A DNA stretch of 62,278 bases, the filler included, from Hausera hauseri (taxonomy: Eukaryota), in NCBI GenBank assembly GCA_046269625.1. It is 12 parts of 12 records of this genome, joined end to end, with 100 filler letters (N's around TTAATTAATTAA, not from the genome) between each part and the next. Parts side by side here need not be neighbours in the genome. Positions count along the whole stretch, not along the records: positions 44,450 to 50,719 come from JBJURY010118764.1; 11 more parts are not named here. One strand, given 5' to 3'. The position numbers were made by a program, and so were the translations under genes. This document shows positions 8,392-62,278 of the stretch, in pieces (the stretch's first letter is position 1; each line of letters opens with the position of its first letter). Under the pieces are notes generated by a model. It worked only from the letters and a program-made list of their open reading frames with translations. It was not told where the DNA came from and ran no database searches.

Positions 8392-8566
8392 TAGAATTTA
8401 TCCTCATCAATAATACTGCTGCTTCATTCACAAAATGACAATAGAAATAGATGATATATTTAGTCCNNNNNNNNNNNNNNNNNNNNNNNNNNNNNNNNNN
8501 NNNNNNNNNNTTAATTAATTAANNNNNNNNNNNNNNNNNNNNNNNNNNNNNNNNNNNNNNNNNNNN

Positions 8567-19032: not shown

Positions 19033-19059
19033 TAAATATAAGTCTTCTTTGTCGTTTGC

Positions 19060-23302: not shown

Positions 23303-23789
23303 NNNNNNNNNNNNNNNNNNNNNNNNNNNNNNNNNNNNNNNNNNNNTTAATTAATTAANNNNNNNNNNNNNNNNNNNNNNNNNNNNNNNNNNNNNNNNNN
23401 NNTCAGATATTCTATTTCGAAAAATTTTTTGACCGCATGTCGAACTAAGCATTATTCGAAAAATCTGATGATGTCATTGGATACCCCATGTGCTAAAACC
23501 CCTATAACCGATTAAATTATTCCATGAAAATGTACTATATAGTTAAACATCAATAAATCGAATTAAGCAAAATGTGCATTTTATGTTCAATGAAGATAGT
23601 TAGGAAACAATATATGAGGAATAGGAATATGACGTCAGATATTCGAATACATTTTTCGACATCGAATGTTTAGCTATTGGAACTCAAAAATTCCCTTGAT
23701 ATGACATATGTTACCAGCACATTACCNNNNNNNNNNACTTCGCCTAAATTTCCTGCACATTACATAAAATCCCCAACACGTTACATATA

Positions 23790-24690: not shown

Positions 24691-24699
24691 TTTGCTGAT

Positions 24700-32810: not shown

Positions 32811-32849
32811 CTGATAATCTGTTACTATCAAGTATTAAATAAGTGCTCA

Positions 32850-33921: not shown

Positions 33922-33989
33922 TACAACAATTAGAACGAAACGTAAATGAAAGATTCGGTAAACTGGGGCAAAATGATGAAAACCATGCA

Positions 33990-36900
33990 TTTATATCGCC
34001 GAATCACCATATACTTACCGTCACTGTTTATACTATGCTGCTTCTGTAGAACCAATGAGTCCATCCAGTAATGACGTGACAATCGGTAGAATTTCACCAA
34101 GGAATCCGCCGTCTTACTGGTACATTACCTCTCCTTTCAGTCGTTTACTACGGGCGTTTGCAAGGCCAATTAGTCCTTTTAGATACCTTAGTAAATTCCG
34201 CTTTTTACTTTCGCCTTGAAGCATCCGATTTTGATTGTGATCGCGCTGCTGTACAGAAAATGGTTCTGCAGGAAGTTGGACGTGTCCAGTAGTCCATCTG
34301 CCATCATTTGCCGGAGCAGCTAATATTGATTGATGTTTTTCGGCTCAAGGAAAAAGCTGTCTGTGTCATCGGCAACGACACTGATCTCATATCAGCCGCC
34401 GCCAAAGATTTGCCGGTAACGTGTCAAGTCGCGATATTGAAACTTGTACATTTGCATCTTGCTCAGGTTTAATACCACTTGTCCGATATAGCTTGGATGT
34501 CCAGTACGACTTCTTCTCTGTTTAGAAGCACGGCGACTAATCCATCGGCAATATGCCTTGATCGTCTGGACTGAGCCTTGCTGGTGTACGTAACCAGTCG
34601 TTTTGCGTTGTTGCACAGGCGTACATTAAGCCGCTTCTTCAGATTCTTCACTGTTTTCCCGTACAGTAAATTGTTTTTGAGCTTGTAATAGTTCTTTTCG
34701 AACTTTGTATAAGCTGCGGCTCGTTTCTCCGAATTTCCATCAATGTACGTCTTGAATATCGGCGCCTGATTGAAGCGGATTGCACGATGCAGCTGTGTGA
34801 CGGGTACACCGAGCTGCATGTAAAACTGCAGTAGACGCCAATGAACTACGTAATTCGATTTGGGTTCATGTGTCATGAGCAGTTTCTTTACTTTTGAGAA
34901 GGGGGAGACATTGGCTGATTGGTGACACGGGTAATTCGCCCAAAGCGTCATACAGCTGATCGGGTACCACGAGATCAACTTCCGTCAGGTAGCCGATTGA
35001 GCTGCTTCCTGTCGTGTTTGCTGCTGGCAGACTGTTTTTAGACAATCCATCCAAATGAACCGTACAGCAAGGGTTGCGAAAGTGCCCAGCCGTACAGGTT
35101 ACTAATGTCAATATACAGGTGGTGGTAGTATCATTACCACTGGCTACGTGATGTTTGTTGACAAACGTCATGTCGCCACGAATGCCAAGATCAAACAAGC
35201 GATATATTTCCGGGTCTTGCAGCAGCTCAATGTCCCGATCAAGTGACATTAGAGCGGATGCCCAACTCATCCCCGATATGGAGTAAAAATTAAGCGGCTC
35301 CAGCCTATCGTTCTCCAATGCTTTAACCCGAAACGCTTGGAATACGTCGGCTAACAAGTACACGTCCAGTTTCAGGTACTGGAGCATGTACTCAAACAGA
35401 TTGCGGCAGCCCAGCTCTGTCCAAAATCCCTCTGCTTTCTGGTACTCGTCCTCTGTAATTCCGGCCCATTGTGGTGTCAGTTGCTCTGTTGTCTGCAGTT
35501 GTCATACGATACAGCAAAGTCATATGGGAATATGCCTTTGCTGCGTGCAATATGCCCGGGTAACTGCGTCAGTGTCAGCGGCACATCTGGCAATGCATTT
35601 ACGAGCTTTGCTAGACACTCATTGAGGAACTGCAATGAGTCACGAAATCGTAACCGTAACCGATTTATGCGTGTTGATAGAGACAGGTACTTCTCCATCG
35701 TTGTTGGGATTATGGATAGCTCCCAATGCGGAAATCCGTTTATGGCTCATTTTAAAACATAGTGACAGTCATAACTCCTGAAGTTATGAAATATCACCGG
35801 CAGGAATGTCCGCATCTGTCTTGCCAAATTATATGAATTGCATGCTGCTCTCAAATATTGACCGGTAAAATGATCATGACCCGGTACGAGCCGTTCCAGT
35901 GCATTGAACGGTAATATTTTGTGGCACAGCTAACATTCATCTGTGGCTTCAAACATCAATGGTTCATATTTATATGTCCACATCAAGGGTTTATTGCTAT
36001 TCCTACTGTACCAGGATGCAACTTCCGATTCTACTATTGTTTCCAACTGCTTTAGGAAATCTCGTGCGCAATTTCAGCCATGAAAAACGTAATATTGCGG
36101 TTTGCCTTCAGCTTTTATTGGGATAACCAGCATGTCAACAGAAATTGGAATATGTTTTTGATCATATACGTTGTGCCGTGGTAGGATTGCCTCAATATCA
36201 GCATATACAACGTATGGCAAACTTTTAGTTTTCAACCAGTCACTAAACCTCAGTTCCTTTTTTACTGGCATGACATACATTTTGTCTGCACAACGTCACA
36301 TGCTTTTCCCATGTCGTTTGTGACCTGAAGCAATGCAGACACACAGGACACCGTTTGTATCGTATTTGGTTTTTGATAAATTAATCATGATCCATATTCA
36401 GCAATCTATCCAAATTTGTCACGGCCACGTAATGATACTTTTCCACCCGTTCCTACAGTAACACATTTACTGGGCATCCGTTTGAATTTCGATTTCTATA
36501 GATTATATTCACATGGGGATTCCTATAGAATTCTTCATCTACTGATATTTCAGCTATTGAATTGTACCGGAAAACGTTGATTTACAGCGTCGGATTAAGC
36601 CGTTCAAACGTATGAATAGATTTTAGTTTCATTGGCATCCAGTTTTCATCGAAATCCCATTCGGAAAAATATAGCCGATACTGATATGGACGCTTTGCAT
36701 GTTTTCTGTCCACTTTGTCATATTTTAATACGGCCAAAATACTGTAAAGAAAACAGTATTCATTGTTAATATTTTTTACATTCACTACCGCCACAGACTG
36801 ATTCAGAGCTGCAGGTGTCGGTATGAATGATCGCCCGGACAGGTAAATTATACCACTCGACTTTGTTATGATAAAGCCAAGAGTGACAATTTTTATAATT

Positions 36901-37490
36901 CGCCATCCACTACCCTTTTCAGTGTAGTTGGCGATTTTCTCCTCTAGCTTTTCGCCTACGTTGGCAATAAAATCTTCGGAATACGGTACGGCTCGATGTG
37001 ACAGGTACCATTGTTTTCTGTCACATTCCAAATCTTCAAATTCTGCAAGTTGGTTTTGGAATTTGGTCACCTCTGTTTCCAACCGGTTACGCACATCAGC
37101 GGGTACACCCTTTAATTGCGTTGCTGTTTTCACTGACATATCCACCTGCATATCAACGTACGATGTGTTTAGATCGTACTTGACTGTAATGTTTGGAATA
37201 CTGGCCTCCTGTTCTTGTTGATGCTGTTTCTGCTGCTGCGGCTGCTGCTGCTGTTGTGTACTGTTTCCTATTAAGTAGTCAAGACTGGTTTGAGGCCTGA
37301 CGTTTTCTACTGGTTGCTGTTGTTGTTGTTATTATTGTTGTTGTTGACAGAATGCTGCTGCCGCTATCCATAAATATTTGTTTCTTTGACTGCTTAAACT
37401 GGTTTAAGTGGTCCTTCTGCAGATTATAAAATTGTTCATAGTTGATTTAACCTTCAACTATTGAACAACAGGGGCAAACGTAGGCCCGTT
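33990..37490 (-). pseudogene. Protein-primed family B DNA polymerase (Polinton/adintovirus), many stops and frameshifts
   Basis: EKGSGWRI, YCFLYSILA, YVVYADIEA, HDHFTGQY...ACNSYNL, IFHNFRSYDCH, FRDSLQFL, KGIFPY, YLKLDVYLLADVF, YIDISNLYGWAL, KLKNNLLYGKT, VADDTDSFF. Confidence 0.93.
37215..37360 (-). repeat. CAG/CAA microsatellite (poly-Gln) in the pPolB N-terminal region
   Basis: TGC/TGT repeat runs on the plus strand translate as QQQQQPQQQKQHQQEQ in frame with the PolB N-terminal ORF. Confidence 0.7.
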
Positions 37491-37552
37491 TGTTGTGCAG
37501 CGTTGTGGTTATGCCATAGCACTGCTCCATTACACTATGAGAACCATCAACG

Positions 37553-37804
37553 TCATACACTTTTACTACAGTATCGCGGGTACATGGGGCAATGCACAAC
37601 CATCATCTTCTTAGACCGAGTAAACGGCCCGAGATGATGCTTGTGCATCTCATAAAAATTGGAGTACGGACAGCGGGTTGGCACATCACACGTTGGACAC
37701 ACATACCTGTCCGGACCAACTTTGTAGTATTTAGCCATCTCTTGATGGCACTGTTCCCTTTCGCATGTATGCGATAGACGTAATACATTCGATATTGAAT
37801 GCAT
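37553..37804 (-). CDS. Small Cys/His-rich (zinc-finger-like) Polinton accessory ORF
   Basis: 83 aa with C-x4-C, YVCPTC, HKHH and HCPMYPRYC; same strand as and just upstream of pPolB. Confidence 0.4.
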   Translation of the reverse strand: MHSISNVLRLSHTCEREQCHQEMAKYYKVGPDRYVCPTCDVPTRCPYSNFYEMHKHHLGPFTRSKKMMVVHCPMYPRYCSKSV

Positions 37805-39865
37805 TTCTAAATGAGAAACAAATTGAATTAAATGTTAAATGTCATACAAATATTATAAACGCATTTATAATTTAAATTAAAATTCACTTAAATCGCCGTA
37901 CCTTATACCGCTCCTTCTATGCTGGTGGTGGTTGTTGTGGTGGTGGTGGTAGTCTGAGGGCTTAACTTATTCAGCTACAAACATTTACAATTCTCAGAGT
38001 ATATTGAAAATGAAATTCAGAGATTGACGATGACATTTTGACCGGACATGTATTTGATGTACAGTTTTTATGTGAGCTCACAAAAAGGAGAATAATGAGA
38101 AGGCAAAATTATATTGAATTGATAGTCAGATCTCTGTTCGTAAAACGTATTGAGGATGAAATGAGACAAAAACGACAACGACAACGATGTATTAATTTCC
38201 TCATTGGACTTGTATTTTCCGTTTCATTNNNNNNNNNNNNNNNNNNNNNNNNNNNNNNNNNNNNNNNNNNNNTTAATTAATTAANNNNNNNNNNNNNNNN
38301 NNNNNNNNNNNNNNNNNNNNNNNNNNNNTGGTGAAACGTTTTTCATATTGTTAATCAGCATTATACTTTGTACGTTTTTTACACCTTATAAAAATCCATG
38401 TGTAACAGTTTCAAACTCACATGAATTTTTATAAGAAGTTGCCAAAAACGTTTTACCAACAAAATTCAAAAGAACGCAGTGATGGCTCAAAAATAAATAA
38501 TAAGAACATACTTTTTAGGATAGCAAAACACAATGGTTTACGTACAAAATGTTAAATAAATGTTGATAAAACTTCATTTTGTTCAAAGAGCTGGAAGAGA
38601 ATGTCAAAGTAACTATGGTAATCAAAACTGGAAATATTTTGGTTTACATAATTACACATCTCCAATAAAGTATTCGTACTAAATAGATAAAACATGAAAC
38701 ACATCGTTAAACAAAAGTAATGAAGGTGAAAACAATAAATTTATTTATTAATTAAAATATTTTGAAATGCATAAATCTTCGGAAAGCAAAGTAGGAATTC
38801 TAGTTTATTGATTGTTACGTGCAATTGAAACAATGCTTATGCATAGTGAGTCTATTCGGTGTTTTAATGAAAGACGAGTTTTCTACATTCCCGCCACAAG
38901 ATGAACACAAAAGATCTCGATACTCATCCAGAATTAATTTGTTTTTGAATAATGGTTGGAGTATCCGAACACTGACGCCATTTACGAATTTTCTCCACTC
39001 CCCGTTTCATCGTAATAGTAAAGCACGTTTGGCGACGAACTGAAATGGAATTGGCCAAGAAAGCATACAATCTAGTTAGTGGCCAACTATCTGGAAGCAG
39101 AATAAGTACCTAAAGCAAAAATTGAGCAATAATAAATAAAAAACAACGTTGCCAACACTACAAGATATTTCAATGTATGAGTAGTATAGAAACGTCGGTT
39201 CTGGATCACATCCCTGCCCCCCACTGTTCACAAAAAGAATGTGGATATAAAAAGTTAACAAGTGGCTTTGATCAATTTCCGTTCCTTTTTTCAACCAATA
39301 TTTTACAAATGTTAGATTTATAGGATATCGTTCATTTGATACAAAAGTACAATGTATTCGTCTAATTGCAATTGATATCGCTGATATTTCTTCGTTATTG
39401 TTACATTTTTGGGTTTTACACACGAACTGTTAAAGATTACCGGTAGAAATTAGACGAATATTTATTTGTTAGTCAGAAGACAAGTCAAATATAAATGGTC
39501 GAAAAAAGTCGACTATTTGTACCAATTTCAAAATTATTATTGGACAGGGGAATTGAAGAAGTGCGAAATGACAACATTTGACAGCACTCATTGAGATATT
39601 TCATATTTTATAGCAAAATTATTGTCATACTATTAATAAATATAAAATTTTGTACTTGCATAATTAATTTTCAACCAAAAACCTGACCAAAATTAAAACA
39701 AATTCCAAAGTTCGTGATAACTTGAATTAACTCAATGGTATTCGGGAGTAACTATAAGACACATACGAACTGTAAATTTGGGTATTTTATAACAAATAGT
39801 CACAGACGTACAAAAAATATGATGCTGATTAGTTAGAAAAAATTTCTGCCAACCAAGTCAAAATA

Positions 39866-41081
39866 TTACGTTGATTCATAAATAACTTCCGTTTTTTTCA
39901 GACATTTATTTCGCCCATCTTCCTGGAAGCTTATCAATTCCTTCCTTGTAAAATGTGGTTGGTTTGGACTGGAAGAAATTTTCGACAGCCTCACTGACTT
40001 GCTCTTCAGATTTCAAGGTTTTTCCATTCAAAAAGTTTTGTAAGGAACAAAAAAGGTGGTAGTCTGTCAGGGCAAGGTTCGATGAGTAAGGTGGGTGTGG
40101 TAAAACAGACCATCCAAGCTCACAAATTTTTTCTTGGGTCATCCTTGTTGTATGTGGTGGCGCATTGTCGTGTAAAAGAATGATGTTTTTGAGATTGACG
40201 AGTGCAGGACCCTTTTCGTTAAATTTCTTTCTCACTCTTGGCAGATGCTAAACGTATGTATCTGCAGTAATTGTTATATTTTACTCTAACAACTCGTGAT
40301 GAATTATACCACGACAATCCCATCATACGCAAAATAAAATATTATTCCATGGATGTTTGCTTTCGGATCTGGTAGGATGGTTGATCCTTATCAAGTCACT
40401 GTCTTTTGCGGACGATATTTTCATAAGTGACCCATTTTAATCGCCTATTATAATCCGATCTAGAAAAGCTCGATTCTTACCAGTGGGAGCAGATTTGTAG
40501 CGATTGACATGCGATCTTCTTTATTCCTTTCACTGAGATTGTGAAGTATCCATACTGCTAACTTGCCGACATTCCCTAATTTCTCCAGGTTGAGGCTGTA
40601 TTCAAAAGTGTGATGTATTCAACCTTTCTGCTATATCTCTTGTTGATTTACGTGGATTTTGCGCCAATATTGCCTTTAAAATATTGTCGTCAAGGTCGGA
40701 AGGACTACCCTCCCTCAGTTCAACTTTTAACTTCGTATCGCCAGAACGGAATTTGGCAAACAAATTTCTAACTGTCCGATCAGTTATTAATCCTTTATCG
40801 TATACACTGCATATTTTTTCAGCTGTCGAATTAGCACTATTGCATTGTTTAAATTCCCAAGGCATCACATGACGTATATGCTCTTTTCACTCTCCATTTC
40901 AGGGGCTATAGACAACAGTTTAATGCAACGTGCACTATACACAACAGTTGTTAGGCGACTACCTGAAACCTAGTTTATTTAGTGCAAGTAAAAACTTGTT
41001 TGTCCCAATGACTCATACTGGGTAGATACGAACAATAAATTCTGTCTGACTGCATCGGAAGTCATTTATAACTCGACTTAA
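39866..41081 (-). mobile_element. Mariner (DD34D, cecropia/Hsmar1-like), near full-length, decayed
   Basis: TIRs TTACGTTGATTCATAAATAACTTCCG / TTAAGTCGAGTTATAAATGACTTCCG. Motifs EFKQCNSA...ICSVY, FAKFRSGD, LHDNAPPH, HPPYSSNLALTDYHLF. Confidence 0.9.
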
Positions 41082-44298: not shown

Positions 44299-46829
44299 TT
44301 AAAACTCGATGTGTGCCAAGACGATACGAATTAATCCGATTTAAATCGANNNNNNNNNNNNNNNNNNNNNNNNNNNNNNNNNNNNNNNNNNNNTTAATTA
44401 ATTAANNNNNNNNNNNNNNNNNNNNNNNNNNNNNNNNNNNNNNNNNNNNCTTCTTGAAACAAATCCCATTGCTTGACTAAATCAATATTTTCTAAATATT
44501 TGGCTTCATTTTTGAGATAAAATTCCATTAAATCAAATGAATAACTTAATCATGCAATTATAAGACAATAGGTTTTTGTAAAGACGGACGAACGGCAAAC
44601 ACACAAGTTTCTATTTATTCAAATTTTAAAACAAAAAAAGTTTTTTGAACAAATTACCCATTGGGTATTTTTGGTCACAACAAGGTATGGTGCTCACAGC
44701 TGCCGGTGCCCTTTGGCCCATTTTGTCGGGCACGGCCGGGCATCCCCTGCCGCCGCGTCGGGCCCATAGGCGGGCCCGATCTTCTGCCGCGAAATTTTAG
44801 TCTCTATCATACTCAAAACATTTGTACACAAAAATTATTAATTGTGAAATCATCAAAGAGACAATGAACGAAGCAAAAGCGATGACATCGCCGAGAGAAA
44901 GCCGAAACCAGTCTGTTAAATGCGCATCACTTTCTCTCAAACAATCTCATCAACATACTATCCGGTATTGCAGTCGAATACATCAATTGCAGCTCGAATT
45001 CTGGGTCAGGAACGCGGTTTGTAGCAGGTCACAACAATCACCACTATTAAGGATCGTCAAATCATTTTCAATCAACGCACTCCAATCGGTCGTCAAGAAT
45101 CAACATAAATTAAATCGTCAAACATCAATTCGAATCTCGACATGAATGATGTCACATCAAAATAACTCAAAACAATTCATTAGACCAAAATAAATAATCC
45201 AAATCATCCAATTCAGATTTCAGATATAATGTGAAACAATCATCAAGAATAACTAAAACAGAGAATAACTCATGCGTCAGACAGTCGCTATCTGTTTCGG
45301 ATTTCCAGAAAAACATTCGATGCAATCATAAACATCTTCACATTAAAGGAATGGAAAATATACGCTTGGATAAGAAAGGCACACGAACGAATCATAACCA
45401 TGTGACTGGACCTGTGTCCAAGTCATTAGATATGATTCACGGAATTCTATCCAAATTCACTGAAGCCATTGATAAAACTGACCAGAAAAAGAATTTCTAT
45501 CTCGAAGTTGCAGGAAAAATAAAAATTATGAAAAGCTATCTAGTCCACATCGATATCGTCATGACAGTAAAAAAATGCTAAATATTCTAATAGAGGGCAA
45601 TTTGGTAATAATAGAAACGATCGACGTGCAACCCCAATTCTACATCTAAAAAATGATAATTCTAAATCCCAGAGCGGTCTTTAAAATGGATTAAGTCCAA
45701 AATTCTGTCCATCCATTCGTAAATGTTTAAAAGGGACTAATGTCGATTATACCAGTTTTCAAAGGGAAATCATATTACGAGGGAAATCGCCTATTTATCA
45801 TAACAGCGAGATCAGTTCTAAATCACAAGAAGCGAACAATAGTCACAGAAAGCAAAGAAAACGAAAAAGAAGTTTAAACAGTATTCAAATTCCCGGTGTG
45901 TCCAGAGTTGTAGTAAGATCAAATATATTCCGAAAGGTCATCGAACATCCAGTTCTCCCATGAGATCTCATAAACAAAACAATAACGACTTGGAAGAATT
46001 TTACTCGATCTTTCCTCTTATTTATCGAAATTTTCAGACTTTACCAAAATGAACACCAGAAATATAAGTTTATGTTTTGCGTCAAATTTTTTTTGCAACT
46101 TCCAAAACGATGAAAGTTCAACATTCCCAATGTCACTGATCTACATTTTGTTCACTTAAAATTTCAACACGTCACACAGTTTAATGATTTGGAACCCCGT
46201 ATGATTTAACCTAGACTCCCTTGTCGATATCAGACTTGATGGATTGTTGATCTTTATATATATTTTGGTAATGATGAACCGAGTGTCGGATTTGTTGGCT
46301 TTTTCTTTTTATGACAGTTTTTTTAGTGTAAAAAACATTGTCGCGTTTGTTTTAATAATAAAAGATTCTAGCCCAAAATTTTAAAAAAGGTTATCGCCTC
46401 CACATTAGAATTTGAATTTTATACGTCGTTGTAAGAATTTGTTTTGTTATTTTTTTAACTTCAATTTGAATTTAATTCTATAATACGAACATTTTACAAT
46501 TTTGTTCGAATTTGATTTATCCACTTTTTTCTGAGAAGTTACGTCTCAACGTCGACTTAGGTGTCATTGAGTATTTTCAATTCGAACAATAATATAAAAT
46601 CTACTGATGATCGAAATGGATATACAAAGTTTTCATTTTGAGTAGAGTTGGACTACGTTACATCGTTTCTTTTTCCAGTAACGTTATGAAGAAAAAATCC
46701 ACGTCTGGATTCCGCTTATCAAATTAAAAGGGTTGATAAAGTGTCAAGATGACAACGGCAAGATGACAACGAAACGTTCTTTGATACAAACGAAAATCAT
46801 ATTAATCATTTAAATTCCCTTCTGTTTAG

Positions 46830-48720
46830 CAAATCGTTCCGAATATTTCTGCTGCAATTGGCAATTGCTGGAGCTTTCTATCCAAATTATTTCCTCCGAA
46901 CACATTACGTTTTTTGAAGAAAACGCTCAACGTCTCTTCGGCGGTCTCGATCGATTCCAATATGTGGAAGTGGGGAACCTACCCATGGACGAGGGTTATT
47001 TGTATCGGGACCGCATCGCATCTCATTTTAAAGAGAATCCAATCGTTGTCTGTCGTAATACTAAAGACATTATAAAGTTCCCTGACAATTTTTCCAATCC
47101 ATACAGTAACATGTTTCACTCCCAAAGCAACCGGACTGCCAATATCTAGGTCATTTTGGCCTCACGTGTGGGTCAACTGAGCAGTTGGAAACCAAAAATT
47201 TCGTTGTACGGGTTAACACACGAGAAGAATGAACTCAAACAACTAATCGATGCACAAATCATCCGAGAAAACAAATTGTTACCACTGAATTATAAATATC
47301 TTGCCGGACCGAAGAATCACGTCGGTTATCCATCAGTGGAATGTAACTACGTGAGGGTGTTCGTCACCCATACAAAGGAGTGCGGAATATTCTATGGTAT
47401 ATATAAGGACGATAAGGGGAAAGAACATGACTTATTTTCGGAGATCGCCAACTATGTATCGTCAAGAAAGAAACAAAAACTCAATTCATTGAAAATCGGT
47501 GACTGTTGTCTAGCACCGTTTGATAGTGAATTCTATCGCGCAGAAATCATTGGGAAAAAGGCTGATTTGATGACGGTGTACTTTGTCGACTACGGAAATA
47601 CGTACAGTGTACGATCTGTATATACGTATGAACTTCCGGAACGGATACTGAAGATTTGCCCCTTAGCCGTGAAATTTGCACTCAGTGAAATCAAACCAAG
47701 TGCTGCATGTCACAAAGACGACCCATGGACTAGTACGGATCGGGATGTTTTTCAAATATATAAACGCATACATAAATATACCACTTTGATGCAAAGTCTA
47801 TTTGGTTGTAGATAATGTCGTCCGAGTAAGAGTGTGCATGGTCGATCATAACAACCGAATACTCAATGAAGAACTCCTAATCATGGGAACTGCCGAGTAT
47901 GCTGAAGAAGGTTTTAGCAGTCAACAGGATAATATGCAGCGGGTCAAGTGTAGCAATAAACGACAAATAGATTCATTTTCCGGCGAAACAGTAATGTCGA
48001 AACCGAGATTCGTAAAAAACCTGGGACTGAACGATAGCGAATCGGACATTGACATTGATGATTTGGACGATGACATTGTCACGACAAATAAGTTGAATAC
48101 ACTGATGGAGTCAGTTAAACATAAACGATCTATTTAAACCGTTACGTTGAGCGCACCTCACCATCCATTCTTGATGAAATTCCACGGTGTAACGGAGTCT
48201 AGCAAACGACCTTTTAGCACTGCTCCCGATTCTGTCTGTTCTATTTTGATCGAACCAGAACGACAAATTCACTTGACTCGTTTGTTAGTAGCCGGTTGTG
48301 TCCAGTCGTGTACTGCCGGTGAAGAGGATAACGACTTAATGTTACGAAATTGTACTCTAATGCCATACATTCCCGGACTTCCGCTTATCATGGTCTTCAT
48401 TCTTACTCCATCCGCAAAAAACTTGTCACTGATTATCATCGCACCAGATACACCGGAGCCCGATTTGAACTCGGTGTTGACTCTGAGGGTTGACCTTTGC
48501 ATCCGTCCAACGTCATATATCCGTACTGACGTAAGATTTGACGACAGCGACAAAAGCATTAATGGCATTCGTGATCTACTGAACATGACACTCGGCAGCA
48601 CAACTTATTCTCAAGACGTCATGGAGAATTATCAGTCGGGCAAAGAAATTATTAGCCTCTGTTCTTGAAGCACAATCGAGATCTCGTCAACAATGAAATA
48701 GTCGGTGAGTACAGTCAGAG
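46830..48720 (+). pseudogene. spn-E: spindle-E/TDRD9 C-terminal half (Tudor and C-terminal region), disrupted
   Basis: LAIAGAFYPNYF, RLFGGLD...GYLY, Tudor IGDCCLAPFDSEFYRAEI...VYFVDYGN, VYLVVDNVVRV, DSVCSILIEP...RLLVAG, LRNCTLMPYIPGLPLIMVFILTP. In-frame stops at 47147 and 48135 plus at least 2 frameshifts; no evident introns. Confidence 0.87.
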
Positions 48721-48799
48721 TATGGCGTTCGCCGACATGGACCATTGCACAATTACATATAAAACGGATTTCAACAGAATTTTTATACCGCACATTTCC

Positions 48800-49235
48800 A
48801 TTGATGGTGTCCCAAGGAGTATCCGATGGATTCGTTCGCCGATTTTAGGCGATCCTCGCACAGAGCGAGCAAAAGCCGACTGGATCCGACGATTCCAGGA
48901 GGCAATCGATGATAATTTAAAAGATCTGAACGAGCCGATTCTAAGCAGGTTCCATCGAACTATGACTTCTCGAATGGCACGACCTGAAGAATTACCAGTC
49001 GTTGAAAATAAACAGAAACGAAGAAAGGACAACAAAACCATTGTGGCTAGCACGGTCATCAAACAAATCCAGGTGAATAAAATAAATACTACTTTCATAT
49101 TTGTTGCTGATAAAACCGTAATGCATATGTTTGCTAAATTTGGTTATGACCAGTGGAACATTGATTTAAAGCTCAGTCCGACTATGGTTGCCGGTTTCGA
49201 TACATTCCACACCAAGATTGGTAAGAAATCGGTTA
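48800..49235 (+). pseudogene. piwi: Piwi-subfamily Argonaute fragment (MID/PIWI junction with first catalytic Asp)
   Basis: FVADKTVMHMFAKFGYDQWNIDLKLSPTMVAGFDTFHTKIGKKSV aligns with the Piwi consensus SVATKIAIQMNCKLGGxxWxVxIPLxxxMIVGxDVYH...KSV. Ends abruptly at a GC-rich block. Confidence 0.7.
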
Positions 49236-49963
49236 CCCCGAAATTTGCGACCCGCCACGGTGATGCTGAAGCCCCGGCCGCCCACCCTATACTATTGGGT
49301 CAGACAGCACCCCTCGTTGCCGCCCCACGACACGCCCTCGGCCACACCACCTCTCCTTATTTCCTATTCATTTTCTTAAATAACAAACACATTTGCACAA
49401 ATTCAGCAACACATTTAAACACGGTGGCAATCTATAACTTCATCTCCACTATTCTTTGCATAAATGTCAACGCAAAAATGTCAAAATCATCATAGTCATT
49501 ATCATTGTAAATGCGTTCGTTTTTGTAAAAATCGTGAATTTTATTTTGTACAACGACGACGACGACGAACACACAAATTACCAGGAGCCCATAATTGACT
49601 ACTACTACTAACACGGAGAATGGTCGCGATCAAAAGTCACATTAATGGAAATATCATATTATTTCTCATGATTTGTTCGCTCTTTAGTCTAAAGTTCAAT
49701 CACGAAATATTGGACATTTGAAGTCAAGACTGTTGTTGTTGTTGTTTGGAAGCGCACTGTTTTCAAAATCAGCAATGTACTTCAATAAATTATGACCACT
49801 GACATAAAATATCATGGGACTTAGTTTATAGTCATTTTGAACATTTTGACAACCGAATATGGATCAATCGGTGAAAGTTCGTTTCTTTTACTTTTTCTTT
49901 ATATTACTATTTTATTAATTTTAAGATTTTATTAATTTTTATTTTTATTATTAATTTTTTTAA

Positions 49964-50340
49964 TGACGCAGTTTCAGACACTTGCATATTCGGACTCACC
50001 GTAATGAGTTGAGTCGGGAAAAATATTGGACTGACCCAGTTTCGTATATCTGCATATTCGGACTCACCGTAATGATTTGGGTCGGAAATTTTTGACTGAC
50101 AGTTTCGGACACCTGCATACTCGGACTCACCGCAATGACTTGGGTCGGAAAAAATTTTATTCTGAGCCGGTTCCAGACAAACACATTTCCCCACCTATCT
50201 GATTATAACAGATTTTTGAAAAAAAAATTGTGATCTAGTTTTCTGACAACACCATTTCCGCACCTATCTGACTATAACAAACATTTTTTGTTTGACCTAG
50301 TTTTTGGACAATACATTTTCCCACCTACCTCGCTATAATG
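49964..50340. repeat. Two juxtaposed tandem arrays: unit A (~65-68 bp x3) then unit B (~62-67 bp x3)
   Basis: A core CAGTTTC...TGCATAYTCGGACTCACCGYAATGA starts near 49964, 50032 and 50097. B core GACAA..CATTT..CACCTAYCT..CTATAA near 50170, 50237 and 50299. Confidence 0.9.
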
Positions 50341-50438
50341 ATCGTTTTGATTAACGAAAAAAAACAAAGTTTACATCAAACTTTTATTTTTATTTTATAT
50401 TTTGTACAAGTACTGCTACTGCTACTAAATCATTCGAG

Positions 50439-50719
50439 TCAATTTGGATTACACAAACCACAAGGATTAACTAATTCCGAAGAAGGAGAAGAAGAATGAT
50501 CGAGACAATCGGAATTAATCATATTGCAATATTGCTTCAAGAAAATTTCATCTTCTGACTGCCACGTAGAAATGTAATTCGTCTGATTACCAATACTACC
50601 TCGTTTGACAAAATCGTTCATAAATTGACGCACTTGACGAGTATTATCGTCCAACTTCGTCATTTTTCCATATGTGCAAAAAATCTTACGGAATAAAAAT
50701 TCCATATCACCAACAACCT
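50439..50719 (-). CDS. Terminal exon fragment, weakly carboxylesterase C-terminus-like
   Basis: GDMEFLF...FMNDFVKRG...W loosely resembles the carboxylesterase D-L-YLF...W.NFAKTG pattern; truncated by the spacer. Confidence 0.25.
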
Positions 50720-50819
50720 NNNNNNNNNNNNNNNNNNNNNNNNNNNNNNNNNNNNNNNNNNNNTTAATTAATTAANNNNNNNNNNNNNNNNNNNNNNNNN
50801 NNNNNNNNNNNNNNNNNNN

Positions 50820-52935
50820 GCGCGCTGGCGGTCTATTATTTCCTCAAGTCAACTTTTCTTCATTACAGTGATTGCGCTTGTTTTAGTCTTTAATCTTGAT
50901 AGGGCATCTGCGTCTACATGTTTGTTCCCTGGCTTATACTAAAATTCAGTATTGTATCTTGACATTTCCTCGATCCATCTATTGAGTCTGCTTGTCGGGT
51001 TATTTGCTCGGCCTTTTAAGGTCGTAACGGCCTTGTGATCAGTGACAATTATAATTTCCTGCCAGTATACGTAAACGTTGAAATGTCGAAGTGCTTCTTT
51101 TACAGCTAGCGTTTCCAATTCGGTAACGGAAAAATTTTTCTAGGCCTTCTTTAAGGAACGTCCTCTATAAGCAATCTGATGTTCTAACTCTTCATCTTCT
51201 CTTTTCTGCACTAATTTGTATCCAATGCCTTCTTTACTGACGTCTGTCTTGATTATGAAGGGTAAGTTAAAGTTTGGATACCGTAAAACAGCTTCACTTG
51301 TTAATATCTTCTTCATCTAGTCGAAGGCTTTCTGTTCGATATCTGTACATTTCCGTTTAATTCCTTTTTAAGTAGGCGGTATAGAAGTGCATGAATTTTT
51401 GAATTATCTGGTACATAGGTTGCGTAATATCCGCAGAGTCCTAGCCAGTGCCTCAACTCTTTCTGGTTTTGTGGTTCAATGCAATCTGATATTTTGTTTA
51501 ATAACGATTTATCTTGTTTCAATCCTCCTTCTCCAACTATATGGGTAAGGTAGGATACTGAGTTTTGAGCCCATTTGCATTTCTTTCGATTTAGCTTCAA
51601 TTCAGCTTGTTCTAATCTCATCAATGTGTGTTCAATATCCTTTAAGTGTTCCTCTTCAGTTCTTGATGCTATCATTAGGTCATCTAAGCACGCAAAAGCA
51701 TGATCCAATCCCATTAACATTTTGTTCATCATTCTCTTAAATATGGTTGGCCCGGTAGTAGTACCGAATGACATGACGTTAAACTTATAAACACCATCGC
51801 GTGTTTTGAATGCTGTCTTATAACGGTCTTAGTCCTCAATTACCACTTGCCAATATCCGGATTGTAAATCCAGGGTGGTAAACCATTTTGCTCGTGAGAG
51901 CCTGTCTAAGGCCTCTTTTCCTGACGGTAATGGAAAGGAGTCCTTCATCGTAAGATTATTTAAGGCTCTGTAATCAACACAAAATCTATGTTTTGTGGTA
52001 CCTTTCGTCTTAACCATGAGGATTGGTGAATACCAAGATCTATAACTGGGCCTAATTATATCGGCCTTGAGCATTCGTTCGACTTCTTTTGTTATCTCGG
52101 GCCTTAATGAATGTGGCGGAGGATACCATTTTGGCATCTTCTGGTCTTCCAAATCTATTTCCTTGTTCGATTCCGGCTTTTTTTGAGTGGAATAGTCAGT
52201 TTTAACGCTCTCGCTCTACCAATATCTTCGTCCTTAGCAATAATCGATTTATATCGGCATAATCGTTCATAGAATTGACAATAAGACTAAGGTGAAAACT
52301 TAGTCTGTGCATTATTAGCTATTCTGATAGGCACTCGACAGGAGTATACTCTTGTTAATATACTGCTGAGTAATATATTCGGATCCAGCGTATCCTTTGG
52401 TTAAAAATATACCGGTTAATCGTCATCTTTCTGTATCTAGGGCGCAAATTATCATTTCTGTTCTCGGTGGGATGTCTTCATCTACGGGTATCCATGCCTC
52501 TCCAATTTTTCTTTCTTTGGCGTTTTTATGCCTTTCTTCGGCTTGATTTTTATTAACTTCCATGCTTGTAAGTCAATTGCTATATTTGGTAATCTTTTCA
52601 ATAGATCACATCCTAGAACTACGTCGTCGGTTAATTGCTCCATAACTGAAAATTCATGATGGAAAAACTGTCCAACTATTTGAACTTTGGGTTCCATTTA
52701 AACATTGGTTTTGACATTTAGCCAAATTCCCCTGTACTTTCTGAATCTTTCGTATATAGTGGGTATAATTGTCCTCTCAGTGTTTGAGTTATTGAATCAT
52801 TTTTGATGTAAGACATCTCGGATCCTGTATCGATTAAGGCGTAAACTTCCCAATCTTCAATAATGATTTTGGCGAAGGGTCTTCCTTCTATTACTGTTCC
52901 GAAACAGTTCGATGTACCCTTTGAGCGTTTCACTG
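50820..52935 (-). pseudogene. pol: Ty3/Gypsy pol: aspartic protease, RT, RNase H (integrase beyond contig end)
   Basis: PR RPFAKIIIEDWEVYALIDTGSEMSYI and VVLGCDLL. RT HRFCVDYRALN, DSFPLP, FTTLDLQSGYWQV, KTAFKT, ACLDD. RH YPNFNLPFIIKTDVS, ELETLAV, TDHKA, HVDADALSR. Confidence 0.93.
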
Positions 52936-53451
52936 CCGATATTTTATGTCCATTGATTAGGATTTCGGGGGAGGATACTATATTCTCCTACAACTGTCTT
53001 CATTTTTCGTTTGGATATAACATGTTGTTTTCTATGTGCAATTCTGCCGTTTCGTGTGTACTAACTAATGGTTTTCGATTGTTAGTGTGTAGTTCAGTAT
53101 TCTGGAAGGTTTTAGCCCTTGGATTGTCCCAAACCGTTTATCTGATTTCTATATTTCGAGGTTCTCTCGGAGAATACAACATCTTGGAATCATCTGTGGA
53201 TTGTCGGTAACACATTTTCCGTGGGATTCCATAAGGTTTTGTTCCTTCATAAGGGTCTTCTACGTTAAATTTGTTTTTTTATAGATTTCAGTCTGATATG
53301 AACTCATTGATAATTTGTCACAGTCTTTATAGACCGGAGCGGTAGGGGGTAGCATATGCAATGGTGCTTTAATGACAGAGTACGTCTAATGTCTGTTTAT
53401 TCCTGATAATACTTCTCTTCCCTTAGGTTCGTCATCATCTGAATTATTTCT

Positions 53452-54893
53452 TTACGTATTAGACTTTGTAAATTTCCGCTTCCGCAAGAATATAGACCTT
53501 CCTGTTCGTTTACGATTATAATAACCGACATGACGCTCTACGTCAGATTTCCATCTGTTTTCTTTGTATGTCTTTAAGAATTTTACAAAGGGCGTTATGA
53601 TCGTCGTCAATATTTTACAGAAAAATCCAGTCAATGTAAATATTTCGTACCCATTTATTACTGCTTGGATGACTGCTTTAATCATTTGTATCAGGAAGTA
53701 TATGGCTAAAAATCCGGATGCGGCTTGTCCGAAAATTAAAAATCTTCTCCAAATTTTGTAGAGTATATCTGTGGTTACTCGCTGATAATGATTTACGCCA
53801 AGTAAAGATTCCAATTTAGCCTGATATCGTGTATCATCTACTACAGAAGCCATGGCTCGGTTTAATTCGTGTGTTCATTGTCGCGGAAAAGCGAGGAATT
53901 TTCTAAAGACTTCGATTTCCTTGGGCCTGTATATGCCTTTCGACGAGATGTCTTGAAATATATCGTCCATAATTCCTTTCGCAAGGTTTGTTCCTGTTAA
54001 TTTAGTTGGGCAGCAGTGATACCTCCATTTGGCAAACTAACTCAGTCTGTTTCACTGCATCTAAACATTGGTTCTCCTAAACTTGCCTTACAATTTTTAA
54101 GGATTGTTGTTTGGGTCGCGTTATCTAGTAATACTCTCGTCAGTGGTATAGCTAACCTAGGAGTATTCTGATAGATAACAGGGAGTTCTTGGATGCAACG
54201 TTTTTCTTCCACGTTCATGGGTACATCTCTCTTTTCGCATTCATAAGTTAACAGTATTTTGCCCATAACCCGACCGAAAATTCCCTCTCTCATAGGAATT
54301 ATTGGAGAAGCCCGTTCTGGGTTGGCGTATATAAGGGCCAACTTCATCCTCATGATCTCGGTATCCAATTTGCAGTCGCTAGTTATTATTTTGTGATATA
54401 ATTCAGCTATTCCGACGTACCCTTTGTAGTAGAAATAATCGTCTCTGTTTTTCAGATAATCCTCAATTCGGATATCCTGCGTTTCTAGTTTGTAAGTCTT
54501 TGCATTTATTTCTGCTTCTGCGACGAAAAACGCCTCATAGTTAGTAGCAAACATCACTACTTCACAACGAGAAATCATTTCTTTCTTAATAAATTTTAGT
54601 CTATGCTTATCAGAGATTAATATAGTGGGCGTAGGATGTTATGATACGTCTTCGCGTGTCCTTGAGTTGGTATCAGATTTATCCGCATATCGCTTTCCGG
54701 TAGTTTCATGAAACTTTAATTACTTAATTTTGATAAAATTACAGCTTCTTCCAGAGGGAGGTTCCCATATTATAACAGAACTTCTAAAAGCACAGGTTCC
54801 ATCTTGAAAATGACATTTTTGATTCTCGGTATATAGTTTAGTGACACTATGGAACATTACTTTCTGTGCTCGCATCTCTGATTCATAGAAATC
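53452..54893 (-). pseudogene. Chuvirus/gB-like (class III) envelope glycoprotein, copy 2; N-terminus cut by contig end
   Basis: Cys pattern CHFQDGTC...IIWEPP...CNF, CEVVMFATN, GRVMGKILLTYEC, CIQELPVIY, PLTRVL, GIYRPKEIEVFRKFLAFPRQ. Membrane-proximal IWRRFLIFGQAASGFLAIYFLIQMIKAVIQAVINGYEI matches the recalled chuvirus G pattern W.KF..FG..SAG......IK..I...I.GY. Confidence 0.78.
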
Positions 54894-57138
54894 NNNNNNN
54901 NNNNNNNNNNNNNNNNNNNNNNNNNNNNNNNNNNNNNTTAATTAATTAANNNNNNNNNNNNNNNNNNNNNNNNNNNNNNNNNNNNNNNNNNNNACTTATA
55001 TTCCACCCCGTATTTTTACCATATCATATTTATCATTTACATTTTGGTAATAAATCGTTTTCATTCGCGATATCGTAAAGTACAAGAATATTCTGGGTAT
55101 GTTCCTAGAGTATGCTTTATTAGATGAAATTCTTCGTCTGACATTCGAAATCTCCTTCAACATTAAAAGTTTTCCAAAGGCGTTACAAAAAATTATCATC
55201 AATAAAATATTATTTCCTTTCGCAGAATTGTCCTACTTCAAAAACGTTGAATGATATCGATGGAAAGTAATGGGAAAAAATAAAACGGCTAATAGAAAAA
55301 AGCGAGATTATTGCGAAAAATATTATCAAGCATTCATAGAATTACACCAAAATGACAAGAACTACATTCAGCACCGCACAATGTCCCGTTCGACGACAAT
55401 TTTCTATAGATTTTCTCCCATTTTAGATGAATAAAAGTGCAAACTTCGTTCGTACAAAAATGAATCGGCTCAAAATAAATTCAATTCCTGTAAAAATTAG
55501 TGAGTGTTATATCTCAAAATTTGGCGAATGATCAAAATATTCAATATTGATCGATCTGAAATATCTCAAATTAAAATAAACAAACATAGAAATTGATCCT
55601 CGCCAAATGTTGATTTACTGAAATTAAAATAAATAACAGTGAAAAAACAACTACCTTGGCAAATGATCTTGACAATTCTGAATTGCTATAATTGATTTGG
55701 TGATATTATGTGACAATTTTGAATGGCTATGTACATAATTTTTATTGACTAAGTAATGCTATGTATACTGTAAATTTAATATATAAGCCAGCACATTTTA
55801 CGGTAAAATCGAACATTCGAACACTAAAATATCATGACATTGGTATTGTTTTTAAATTTACATGTGAGTACTTATTGATACACATTATGTGTATTTTGTT
55901 TCATCGAATATTTGGCGTTTAAATGTTTTTACATTATAACTTTTGTATATAATCGTATTTGTGTTCTTTTTGGCCTTAAAAATTAACTGAGTAAATAAAC
56001 AAGCGTATTCATTAAAAATAGTCGAAAAGATCCCTACCTGACGATGGCTCAAATAATACAAATAGTTTAATAGGATAGTAAAGCATAGAAATTAAAGACA
56101 AAGTAAATCACATTGACCACGACACATGATCAGCTTCCTAAATAGGTAAGGTTCTTAACATATCTCTCTCGCTCTCGTTCTTATTTTATCTCTATTAGCA
56201 TGACTCACTGTGTTTTATAAAACTAAATGTTTGTTAATTGTAGTAACAGGACGTTAGCCAATCAAGAAGGAAAGTGGATTTCAATTTCCGAAGTTTATAA
56301 GAAGAATAGCTAAACAAGTTGAGGCATCCCTGCGAACTGTACTAAAAGTAAGATCAGTTCGTCCGAAAGGCCCAATCAACAAACGTCTGGAGAAAAGTGT
56401 TATACAATTTATTCAAAGTCATCCTACAGCATCCATACGGGACAGCAAAAAAGAAACAGGTATCTTAAAGAAAGAAATAATTTCAAAACGTATAAAAAAC
56501 AAAAGTATCAAAAAAGAACTCAGGAGCAGAGCCAGACTGCAGCTAACATAATTCATTTGATAGTCTTTATTACGCTTCCAAATTCATTTTATCTGACAGT
56601 AAATTTGTTTCATTTTTCATTTGTGGGGATAATTCAATTTCATTTTTGTTGACAATTTTACACCGCAAAGACAAGTCTATATAAACATAGGATTTTTAAG
56701 GACACCGACCATTATTTTTTTGTTATAAAACTCTATGCTACGTCCTATCGATAAGTAAGTATATAGTATAAATAAAGTTTGAACCAAAGTAATTTTCCTA
56801 ACCAGGACCCTTTTTGTTATCCCGGTCAGTAAAAACCGGGTGTTTAAAATCCTATAAATAAAGTACTATTCGGCCAGAGTCCCTCCTGCGTCCAAGTACA
56901 CCATAAGATCAAGTAATTTCTACCAACTAACAGGTTGCCACACGTAAAACTAAAATAAACTAGGCGTATGATCCAAAGGAATCACGTTTAAGTTTGAGGT
57001 CGGGACACCCAAACTTCATCTCTAATCTCAAACTCAACAAGAAAAATAAGCCAATATTGTTCGAGAAAAATCAAATATAAATAAAATACTAAGTCTCTTA
57101 CAATAATTTTGAAACAAATTCTAGATCATTTTGAAATT

Positions 57139-58047
57139 ATGAAAAAAATAAAATTAGGTTTGATTTCTGATGTTCAATACTGTGACTGTGATGATGGCTG
57201 GAATTTTGAACAGACTGTCGAACGATTCTACCGAAACAGTGCCCAACATTTAGCCAATGGCTTACGCTATTTTGCGGAGAATAATTGTCGATATGCTTTA
57301 CACGCAGGTGATTTGTTGGACAGAAAATGTACAGCATTTAATAATGTAAGATGCGCAACATCCCACATGGAGAATTTGTTTAATCAGTGCGATATTGAAA
57401 CATTTCATGTTGTAGGAAACCACGAACTATATAATTTCAGCCGACAAGAGTACAGTTCGTCATTTATGGGTCAATCTGCTCGACAATACAATCCATCGGT
57501 GATTGAGCGCAGTTACTATGCTGTGGATTTGTCAAATTATGTGCGGTTACTGGTGTTAGATACGTATGATATCAGTGTCCTTAATGGTGATAATGATCAG
57601 CAACATGAGGCTGGACAATTTATTTCATCATCCTGCAACACAGATGGGAAACATTTCAGGGATTTCAATGGTGGAATTGGAGTTACTCAACTGAAATGGT
57701 TGTGTAATGAATTAGAATTATGCAATGAACAGAACAAGGTGGTCATTATATCAGGACATGTACCCATATTGAGTATGGATGAGGATTGCATCAGCCTGTT
57801 GTGGAATAAGGATGTTATATTGGATATTATTGAACATTACTCATGTGTAAAGGTCTACATTTGTGGTCATACCCATGTTGGTGAGATAATCAATAATGGT
57901 AAGTTCATTCATTTAACATTGCCTGGTGTTGTTGAATCACCAAAAGACGCAACGCCATATTGCATATTGACAGTCGACAGAAATGAATTGGAAATTAGTG
58001 AGATATCAAATTGCTGGGATAAAATTGTGTTTCGATTTTCGATTTAA
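57139..58047 (+). CDS. ADPRM: Mn2+-dependent ADP-ribose/CDP-alcohol diphosphatase
   Basis: Intact intronless ORF with GLISDVQYCDCDDG, R.YRNS, GDLLD, GNHELYNF, LDTYDIS, FNGGIG..QL.W, HVP, LLWN, GHTH and LPGVVE. Confidence 0.9.
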   Translation: MKKIKLGLISDVQYCDCDDGWNFEQTVERFYRNSAQHLANGLRYFAENNCRYALHAGDLLDRKCTAFNNVRCATSHMENLFNQCDIETFHVVGNHELYNFSRQEYSSSFMGQSARQYNPSVIERSYYAVDLSNYVRLLVLDTYDISVLNGDNDQQHEAGQFISSSCNTDGKHFRDFNGGIGVTQLKWLCNELELCNEQNKVVIISGHVPILSMDEDCISLLWNKDVILDIIEHYSCVKVYICGHTHVGEIINNGKFIHLTLPGVVESPKDATPYCILTVDRNELEISEISNCWDKIVFRFSI

Positions 58048-59989: not shown

Positions 59990-60907
59990 CCAACTGATTG
60001 GGATAATACTGCGTGTTCCATGTCGGCAATATGCCCAGCGTTCGTACTATTTAAAGACCTCTACTTTCCGATTTTAGCATGAAATCCTTCCGTTCAGCTT
60101 ATAAGCCAAGGTTGTCTGCAAAAAACATTTCCGATAGTCTGTCTTTTGCTCGTGCTCATGCTCAATGTTCAGACGATCAATGACGTAAGATTGTTTTCAG
60201 ATGAGGCAAGCGTGTCCAAATTTGGAAGTTATACCACTTTTGGTCGCTCCACCTAACTCCCACTATGAACCCCGATTCGTCATCCCCTCTGTCTAAAAGC
60301 CGTCCACAGTGATGATTTTGGGCTGCCTGGCTCCATCATGCGTTGTTGGTCTGTGGCTTACGCCTCCGCATACCAGTATCAATTCAATTCTTTATCTGGA
60401 CGTATAGAAGCAAAATCTTCCCATTTGGATGCCGCGACGGGGAGCAACGACTTTTATGCACGACGGTGCGCCGTGTTATTCTGCTAAGCTTGTGTGTGGC
60501 TGGTTTGATGACCAAGATTTCCATATTATTCCCAATTGGCCAGGCTCATCGCTCGACCTCAATGTCATTAAGCAAGTCTGGTCCAAGCTCAAAAAAGAGG
60601 ACACATCGAAAACCCTCTTCCGTAGCAGTGCTCCGAGCAGAAATCCAGGATGTATGGAATCACCTCATCACACTTGCTTTTTGCGCACGTTTGGTCCTTT
60701 CCATGCTTCATCGCATTCAGACTGTACTGCAAGCAAAAGGAGGCAATACAAAGTTCTGACAGTCAAGGGTTTGTGTATATGAGATAGAAATAAACTATAA
60801 CGATTTTCGTACTTTCCACGAAATTTTTGTAACAGTTTTTTAAATGATGTGACACGTTTATGAAACATGTACTGTTTGGCATTATCGAGGACTTTCGGCA
60901 GGGACTC
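59990..60907 (+). mobile_element. Tc1-like transposon remnant (DD35E spacing, E to K)
   Basis: LFSDEA, VMILGCL, HDGAPCY...WPGSSLDLNVIK, AKGGNTKF*. The right end reads GAGTCCCTGCCGAAAGT on the minus strand, next to TA. Confidence 0.85.
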
Positions 60908-60997
60908 TACACACTTGCTTGAATGTCAGTACTGTTGCAAACACTCAGTAGAAACAGGAACCCTGCCTCAATAATTAATTGCAATAGATACTATATA

Positions 60998-62278
60998 CAG
61001 TATTGGACAAAAGTCTGAGACCAAACATATAATCATAAACAAATACATTTCATAATGGATTTTCTCAGAAATATGATATTACTTGAATATCATATAGTTT
61101 GTATGGTATATAAATGTTCAATATACAGTATTTAATATTTTGAATGATGTCCTTTGTACTGAAGAACTGCAGAAATTCTTCGAGTCATGGAGTTAATTAG
61201 ATTCTCACAGTAGCCTTTTGAAATATTAGATGACCAAATTTTAATGATGTTGTCACATAAATGTTGATATGATGTTCACTGTAATGATGCAACATGTTGC
61301 TTGACAATATACCAACAACTTTCAATTTGGTTCAAATCGGGTGATGATCCTGGCCATGGGGAAAGAAGGTTAATGTTGCTGTTGGTAAGCCACTGTTTTA
61401 CAGATTTTGCATTATGGCATGGAGCGTCATCATGTTGAAAGTAAGTAGTGCCACTGGTTATTAACAAAGCAGGTAACTTATCTTTCAAAATATCTAAATA
61501 TTCCTCTGCATTGATAGTGGTGTTTTGATGAGTTAAGTAAATACCACCAGGATCATTAGCAGATATTGAGTCGCATATCATGACTGAAGGACATTGTTTG
61601 ACATCAGACTTAGTATGTTTGGAATTATATCGTTCATTAATAGGACGGTAAACACGGGAAACAGAAGGTGTAAATTATTTTATTTGTGTTTCGTCTGAAA
61701 ATAAAACGTTTCGCCAATCATTTTCAGTCCAATCTTTATATTTCTTACAGAATTTAAGGCAATCCTGAATGCTTTTCTTAGAGAGCATTGGTTTAACAAC
61801 TGTACGCCTTACCTTAAGTGCAAATTTTTGTGACAATCTTCTTCGAATTGTCTTACTACTGATAGAGACAGTTGAGGGTAGTTGATGTTTTATGGCCATA
61901 GATGATAGCATAGGTAATTTGGAGCAGATTCGATAAATAAGGGAGTCTGTGTGACATGAAGTACATGTTCACCGGACGGACCTTTTCATTGATTCCAACA
62001 ATCCAGTTTCCTTTATGCGAGTAAGTGTATTATAAACTGATGTTTTTGAGACTGCCAACCAAGCAGCAATAGCTATTTCAGTGTCCCTCTTCTTTCAAGA
62101 TAGTTATCTGAGATCTAATGGCAATGGACAATTCAGTCATTGAAAAGTCGTTACTAAAACATAAAAAGTATCACATCTCTAATGGCATACAGTCATCAAA
62201 AAGTCAAGCAATCCATATGTAAATGTTACACAAGACACTACATTAATTATCTTCTGATAGAACATTAATACCAGATAC
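60998..62278 (-). mobile_element. Tc1-like transposon (DD35E), decayed
   Basis: TA-CAGTATTGGACAAAAGT terminus. Motifs SSKTIRRRL, WTENDWRNVLFSDET, QHDDAPCH...WPGSSPDLNQIESCW, TKDIIQNI. Confidence 0.88.

Follow-up and report, generated by a model that had tools for sequence, protein, structure and literature searches.

Pieces of two piRNA-pathway genes, TDRD9/spindle-E and Piwi, lie one behind the other on a short scaffold of Hausera hauseri, and the locus raises the question of how they were joined and whether the joined unit acts against the silencing machinery. A first-pass annotation of the sequence had proposed a two-gene chimeric pseudogene. The pseudogene is borne out: contigs bridge two of the junctions, the pieces come from distinct genes, nine lesions interrupt them, and the changes look neutral. 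Its composition had to be revised, with the TDRD9 and Piwi parts retained and Exportin-1 recognized as a third parent in the gap between them.

The window, that is, the whole stretch of DNA analyzed, spans 62,278 nucleotides (filler included) and consists of 12 scaffolds of 4-7 kb each, joined by 11 linkers of 100 N. Since these scaffolds are separate, as had been pointed out at the start, only one of them counts as context for the locus:

44450-50719, no strand: scaffold holding the locus, 6.3 kb, between 100-N linkers at 44350-44449 and 50720-50819

The other scaffolds carry features of their own. Pieces of reverse transcriptase and of a Monjiviricetes-type fusion glycoprotein (E 4e-15, 6e-18) on the minus strand of 50820-54893 likely represent an envelope-bearing LTR retrotransposon family, and stretches at 18634-19446 are 71-73% alike to that scaffold. 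Integrase and DNA polymerase B pieces at 31822-38228 are likely a decayed Polinton/Maverick. Broken LTR retrotransposon pol sequence (integrase, RNase H, RT) and several DDE transposase pieces occur at 23737-27669, 15200-15586, 39906-40247, and 60316-61674. There are also a 347-codon open frame with an Amidase_2 match (E 1e-6), resembling peptidoglycan recognition proteins (8515-9558, minus strand), an uninterrupted 320-codon metallophosphoesterase frame (57085-58047, E 1e-13), and several exons of a glycosyl hydrolase family 47 (EDEM-like) gene (28839-31111, minus strand).

Two public runs, X1 and X2, match the locus, and neither is on record as RNA. X2 contains 0.10 of the words at a depth of 2-3 and was left out of the analysis. 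X1 contains 0.48 of the sampled words and may be the source sample of the window, in which case it is not independent of it. Across 46660-49240 there are 189 X1 contigs, 119 of which are less than 95% alike to the window; exact contigs cover 46569-46852, 47006-47402, and 49109-49400. For most of TDRD9 the summed X1 depth is about 45-115, with 13-20 at 46921-47181, and it climbs to 549 over the Exportin-1 bits, a rise that serves as a lead only, summed depth not being copy number. The contig tables list 40 of 259 substitutions, 12 of 15 indels, 6 of 48 loose ends, and 8 of 194 pieces.

The TDRD9/spindle-E part

The first-pass annotation described a stop-disrupted, apparently intron-free C-terminal half of spn-E that lacks the helicase core, and each element of this description holds. 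The half extends over 46702-48620 on the plus strand and is broken by five frameshifts (~46910, 47745, 48417, 48516, 48641-48659) and four stops (47147, 47787, 48135, 48491):

46702-46914, plus: TDRD9/spn-E piece 1 (tblastn with P0008, 46702-46914; profile match 46828-46905, E 7e-7), with a frameshift at ~46910 inside a run of six T
46913-47745, plus: TDRD9 piece 2, with a Tudor domain at 47345-47686 (PF00567, E 4e-17) and a stop at 47147 (profile match 46913-47761, 134 bits)
47746-48416, plus: TDRD9 piece 3, with stops at 47787 and 48135 (54% identity to P0008; profile match 47772-48416, 112 bits)
48419-48620, plus: TDRD9 piece 4, in two frames (shift at 48516) with a stop at 48491 (weak profile match 48422-48505)

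The profile was built from 33 TDRD9 proteins, chosen among 120 listed relatives of P0008 together with P0008 itself. This unnamed protein, the only one of 679 candidates to match the Tudor piece, is the closest to the locus, aligning to 46702-48419 at 35-54% identity, and its own best relatives are named TDRD9/spindle-E. A sub-profile extends the homology to 48525-48620 (6.2 bits against -0.5 for the best control), which is the last provable TDRD9 homology, and X1 contigs run through piece 4. A homolog search with P0001 gave 0 of 1674 candidates, and a metagenome scan with P0008 returned nothing. Near the start of the TDRD9 homology, a 14-base tandem duplication is present at 46745-46771.

Across the scaffold, sub-profiles of the helicase core (reference residues 81-710) reached -1.9 bits at most. 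The locus thus has neither the DEAH helicase core nor the open frame of a working TDRD9/spindle-E gene. A stretch that resembled a helicase remnant by eye (45569-45829) was rejected, given that 460 of 1189 control frames score just as high and that it has no relevant PDB or Pfam match.

Short introns do not explain the lesions, because GT-AG candidates are absent at seven of the nine; near the other two, removal of the candidate would delete conserved coding sequence. The window also reads straight through the gaps of P0008: 42 conserved profile columns, corresponding to 56 window codons (47198-47377), are missing from this protein, and it ends early, near window position 48420. These gaps resemble a gene model with missed exons and would thereby argue, indirectly, for an RNA route, an intron argument that rests on this one protein. 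In one X1 contig, unknown letters are inserted at the codon boundary 48020/48021; they may represent an intron or another insertion.

Exportin-1 and Piwi pieces in one open frame

Downstream of TDRD9, further pieces follow on the same strand:

48621-48929, plus: coding-like stretch of about 310 bases with no parent match, frameshift at 48641-48659, common to diverged contigs
48930-49018, plus: Exportin-1 (CRM1/XPO1) bit a, about residues 408-438 of the human chain (PF18784, E 1e-5; PDB)
49010-49060, plus: Exportin-1 bit b, about residues 529-545 (second collinear PDB stretch)
49061-49100, plus: AT-rich linker of 40 bases, open in frame (from the sequence)
49101-49234, plus: Piwi fragment of 134 bases, SMEDWI-1 type (flatworm), at the MID/PIWI boundary; 66% with SMEDWI-1 across 44 aa
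48656-49495, plus: single open frame, 279 codons long, running through the 48621-48929 stretch, both Exportin-1 bits, and Piwi

The stretch at 48621-48929 matched nothing in shuffle tests, PDB, Pfam, or Atlas. It is likely to be either the tail of a flatworm TDRD9, evolving fast, or another captured piece. Its assignment to the TDRD9 tail of other animals was rejected, since 183 of 300 shuffles did as well for 48659-48931, with no PDB or Atlas match.

Exportin-1 was identified from structure and family searches. All 27 PDB matches of 48890-49111 are to Exportin-1/CRM1 (best E 9e-4), in two collinear stretches between which about 90 codons are absent. The Pfam match, to CRM1_repeat_2, lies below the curated cut-off because just 29 of 68 positions are present. 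With the whole ORF as query, phmmer produced no XPO1 match at E 0.001. Among the loose ends listed, two X1 contigs join at 48938 with a different, XPO1-like left flank. Translated by eye, this flank preserves both the Y and the P found in the Exportin-1 alignment, whereas the window lacks the Y; these contigs therefore likely derive from the parent XPO1. In other copies (49010 allele), the internal deletion falls at an E-Q pair, which is likely to be short homology at the joint. A metagenome scan with a motif across the XPO1 joint returned nothing.

The Piwi match to SMEDWI-1 was reached by 0 of 1000 shuffles. Likewise, the ORF at 48656 has two matches among 1.84 billion proteins, both Piwi, including SMEDWI-1 from Schmidtea mediterranea; scanning viral sequences with P0002 returned nothing. 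The presence of a Piwi MID/PIWI fragment, as first proposed, is therefore upheld, while its start at ~48800 is not: among the loose ends listed, six X1 contigs join at 49101 and continue to the left in Piwi-type sequence, which by eye resembles the part of SMEDWI-1 that precedes the match and so places the start at 49101. A PAZ-like match at 48870-48990 (E 0.011) was discarded, as 592 of 1000 shuffles do as well once the XPO1 bit is removed. The linker has no Pfam match, is not Piwi (161 of 1000 shuffles), and begins like a splice donor by eye. Piwi had been placed within ~100-300 nt of spn-E; the distance is about 480 bases from the last provable TDRD9 codon. The TDRD9 and Piwi pieces do lie on the same strand, as had been reported; the Exportin-1 bits lie on this plus strand too, and both of them share one frame with Piwi. 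The chance of three in-frame joints is about 1 in 27 by arithmetic, with one joint biased towards frame.

Two of the joints recur in diverged copies. Seven contigs cover 48910 and bridge the joint at 48930, the best reaching 56 letters from its end, and 11 contigs cover the joint at 49010, the best by 44 letters from its end. It would take a collapsed or misjoined short-read scaffold, combining a true spn-E gene with unrelated repeats, to produce the locus as an artefact of assembly or sequencing. The scaffolds are indeed short and X1 holds under half of the sampled words; the joint between XPO1b, linker, and Piwi (49060-49101) has no bridge among the loose ends and pieces listed, and the lesions at ~46910 and 48135 are absent from the contig rows listed. 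Against this stand the three exact contigs, the diverged contigs across 48930 and 49010, and the derived, neutral-looking changes described below, and we regard an artefact as highly improbable. The lesions are also not errors in the sole spn-E gene, a possibility raised at the outset. The exact contig 47006-47402 carries the stop at 47147.

Several Piwi-type and TDRD9-type relatives are present in run X1, which supports the suggestion that the locus records turnover of piRNA genes in a TE-rich genome. Other contigs are open at at least four of the five frameshifts and at least two of the four stops (six of nine lesions), and others have lesions of their own, namely frameshifts at 47219, 47555, and 48255 and deletions from 47343 and 48181 among the 12 of 15 indels listed. 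Some of the open alleles may belong to one or more working tdrd9 genes; if they come from the parent gene, this parent would have no intron over those stretches. The 40 best-supported of 259 differences, which are not a random sample, fall 16/13/11 on the codon positions, and 32 of the 37 codons concerned are non-synonymous. P0008 aligns at 18 non-synonymous sites; the other allele agrees with it in 11, the window in 0, and neither in 7. The changes of the window copy thus look derived, neutral, and unselected.

The open alleles also bear on a family of in-frame fusion genes, in which the Tudor half of TDRD9 is joined to XPO1 and Piwi peptides, an intact, translated member exists elsewhere, and the window holds a dead copy. 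A contig over 48517-48680 with seven gaps matches three listed insertions that, judging from the counts, would carry the TDRD9 frame into the ORF, and a run of 192 stop-free codons was reached by 0 of 2000 shuffles. However, a lesion-free run of this length has a probability of 0.058 at the lesion rate of the window copy, the other copies bear their own lesions, and the open alleles may be those of the parent gene. In addition, the XPO1 and Piwi bits (17-44 residues) are probably too short to fold as domains. A fusion family is, in our judgment, improbable.

Flanks and route of joining

The locus was said to arise through a mobile element or by retrocopying, and this is plausible, although the vehicle was not found on the scaffold. 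The scaffold extends 2.2 kb and 1.5 kb beyond the cargo, and within it neither an LTR pair nor inverted repeats nor a long direct repeat enclose the cargo. The best terminal inverted alignment of 44450-44900 with 49200-49960 was reached by 43 of 200 shuffles, and self-BLAST gave none. No A-run of eight or more occurs between 46095 and 50218, no flanking direct repeat was found on the scaffold as a target-site duplication, and no TE protein match rose above background on the scaffold tiles. Helitrons have a 5' TC and a 3' hairpin followed by CTRR; the GC hairpin near 44760-44790 lies upstream of the cargo, not behind it. One candidate end was detected:

49232-49364, minus: putative LTR-like end (49346 to 49232), preceded by a purine tract (49364-49347) and directed antisense into Piwi

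The LTR-like stretch comprises 115 GC-rich bases after the purine tract, both of which are taken to be such from the general consensus. A tract of this kind occurs at 2 of 2485 TGT sites in the window, by criteria set after the tract was seen. Its joint with Piwi is contained in the exact contig 49109-49400 and in an 18%-diverged contig (49111-49337), and one contig has another flank beyond 49225. Because its antisense orientation is wrong for a capture vehicle, we infer that it was inserted later and was then copied together with the unit.

On both sides of the cargo lie repeats that are very abundant in X1 (44659-44867 and 49257-50300). A 63-base tandem repeat at 49969-50155, followed by a second short array at 50160-50350, reaches a summed X1 depth above 600,000; these arrays (49969-50350) are likely a major satellite or non-autonomous element of the genome. 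The GC-rich repeat at 44660-44810 has a strong hairpin and a summed X1 depth of about 17,000; it has no Rfam match, and neither an Rfam match nor a tRNA was found. Coding-like broken frames at 44801-46100, upstream of TDRD9 and common to X1 contigs, have no Pfam or PDB match, including for the ORFs at 44801-45142 and 45198-45578, and are possibly more captured cargo. A RhoGAP match at ~45995-46093 (E 0.006) was set aside as background level among 71 tiles, with no PDB match.

The pieces are sense, in frame, and intron-free, and one joint likely has short homology; hence we favor template switching among mRNAs. The locus is a mosaic of three parents, TDRD9, Exportin-1, and Piwi, and to its origin by this route we give about even credence. 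In this scheme, the reverse transcriptase of a retroelement would switch among several stem-cell or germline mRNAs packaged together, and the product would be re-copied, as for Bs1 and animal LTR retrocopies. The mosaic would have been copied several times, followed by neutral decay; we infer both the RNA route and the retroelement vehicle. The available text of PMC5131818 describes multi-parent LTR retrocopies, including maize Bs1 and cases in Drosophila, which resemble the locus in comprising partial exonic pieces of three parents on the same strand and partly in frame, and in having several copies that share switch points. The locus differs from the Bs1 type in that no flanking LTR pair was found, the lone LTR-like end is antisense and thus in the wrong orientation for LTR-mediated capture, the cargo includes two piRNA genes, and the copy is old and broken.

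Pieces could alternatively be joined at the DNA level, through a Helitron, a Pack-TIR, or template switching during replication, and multiplied by transposition or segmental duplication. Short host pieces with short homology at their joints and several copies are also features of Pack-TIR, Pack-MULE, and Helitron capture, so far as the accessible part of PMC8277862 describes them. The abundant flanking repeats, the donor-like start of the linker, and the absence of poly-A are likewise compatible with DNA capture. It would not be expected, however, to leave the identified pieces on one strand and in one frame; neither terminal inverted repeats nor clear Helitron ends were found on the scaffold, and most lesions lack an intron candidate. 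We therefore judge capture at the DNA level to be unlikely, though a serious competitor to the multi-parent retrocopy.

Bearing on the piRNA pathway

Two of the three parents are piRNA genes, which raises the prospect of an anti-silencing unit. A mobile element would keep piwi and tdrd9 pieces, and the minus-strand LTR-like end would drive antisense piRNAs that repress host genes. This end does point antisense into Piwi, at a joint common to the 18%-diverged contig, and there is precedent: Drosophila telomeric TEs have repeatedly captured piwi, aub, and nxf2, with antisense piRNAs against them (PMC7785250 and PMC13534243, in the portions available), and eight of nine such captures are of piRNA genes (PMC13534243, same portions). 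The term spn-E has 0 occurrences in the main text of PMC13534243. The locus resembles these captures in its Piwi-family piece (134 bases here, 140-235 there, from the text available), in being a repeated unit, and in carrying a piece of an export factor. It differs in that no carrier TE with its own ORFs was found, in its 1.9 kb of TDRD9, in belonging to a different phylum, and in being known from sequence alone.

Several observations count against such a unit. No carrier element was found on the scaffold, and the window copy decays neutrally. In PMC13534243, as far as its available text goes, captures of about 80% identity yield almost no host-gene piRNAs, and PMC10954484, in the part accessible, reports an overwhelming sense bias among SMEDWI-1 piRNAs that derive from poorly translated transcripts. 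The case for a unit directed against the piRNA machinery is further weakened because Exportin-1, which is not piRNA-specific, is a general export gene and fits the capture of whatever mRNAs were at hand. We consider an anti-silencing role decidedly improbable. If true, it would constitute a TART-like weapon outside insects, with piwi and tdrd9 in one cassette, transcribed antisense from an LTR, and two core silencing genes hit; the window would hold a dead copy of it.

The multi-parent retrocopy leads to a different expectation. In planarians, transcripts that are poorly translated or derive from pseudogenes feed SMEDWI-1 with mostly sense piRNAs (PMC10954484, accessible part), and clusters of a second tier look like pseudogenes (10.64898/2026.01.28.702291, text available in part). 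By analogy, a transcript of the locus would likely share this fate. If the locus is transcribed, sense piRNAs would be the most likely product, with little effect on the parent genes.

Parasitic flatworms lack Piwi, and free-living ones have an expanded FLiwi group (PMC8191739 and PMC12147562, available sections). Together with the match of the ORF at 48656 to SMEDWI-1, this makes the host likely to be free-living. The expansion, with possible pseudogenes, resembles the present case in the SMEDWI-1-type piece and the several Piwi-type relatives in X1; FLiwi copies are near-whole Piwi, whereas the locus holds 134 bases fused to other genes (PMC8191739, available sections). In the literature covered, mostly papers outside subscription, we found no report of a flatworm TDRD9-Piwi or XPO1-Piwi chimera.

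On the evidence of its sequence, the locus is a pseudogene of a known kind. As a relic, it would record repeated capture and copying of stem-cell mRNAs, including those of two core piRNA genes. Flatworm stem cells depend on Piwi, and the locus allows piRNA-gene capture of the Drosophila type to be asked about in flatworms.
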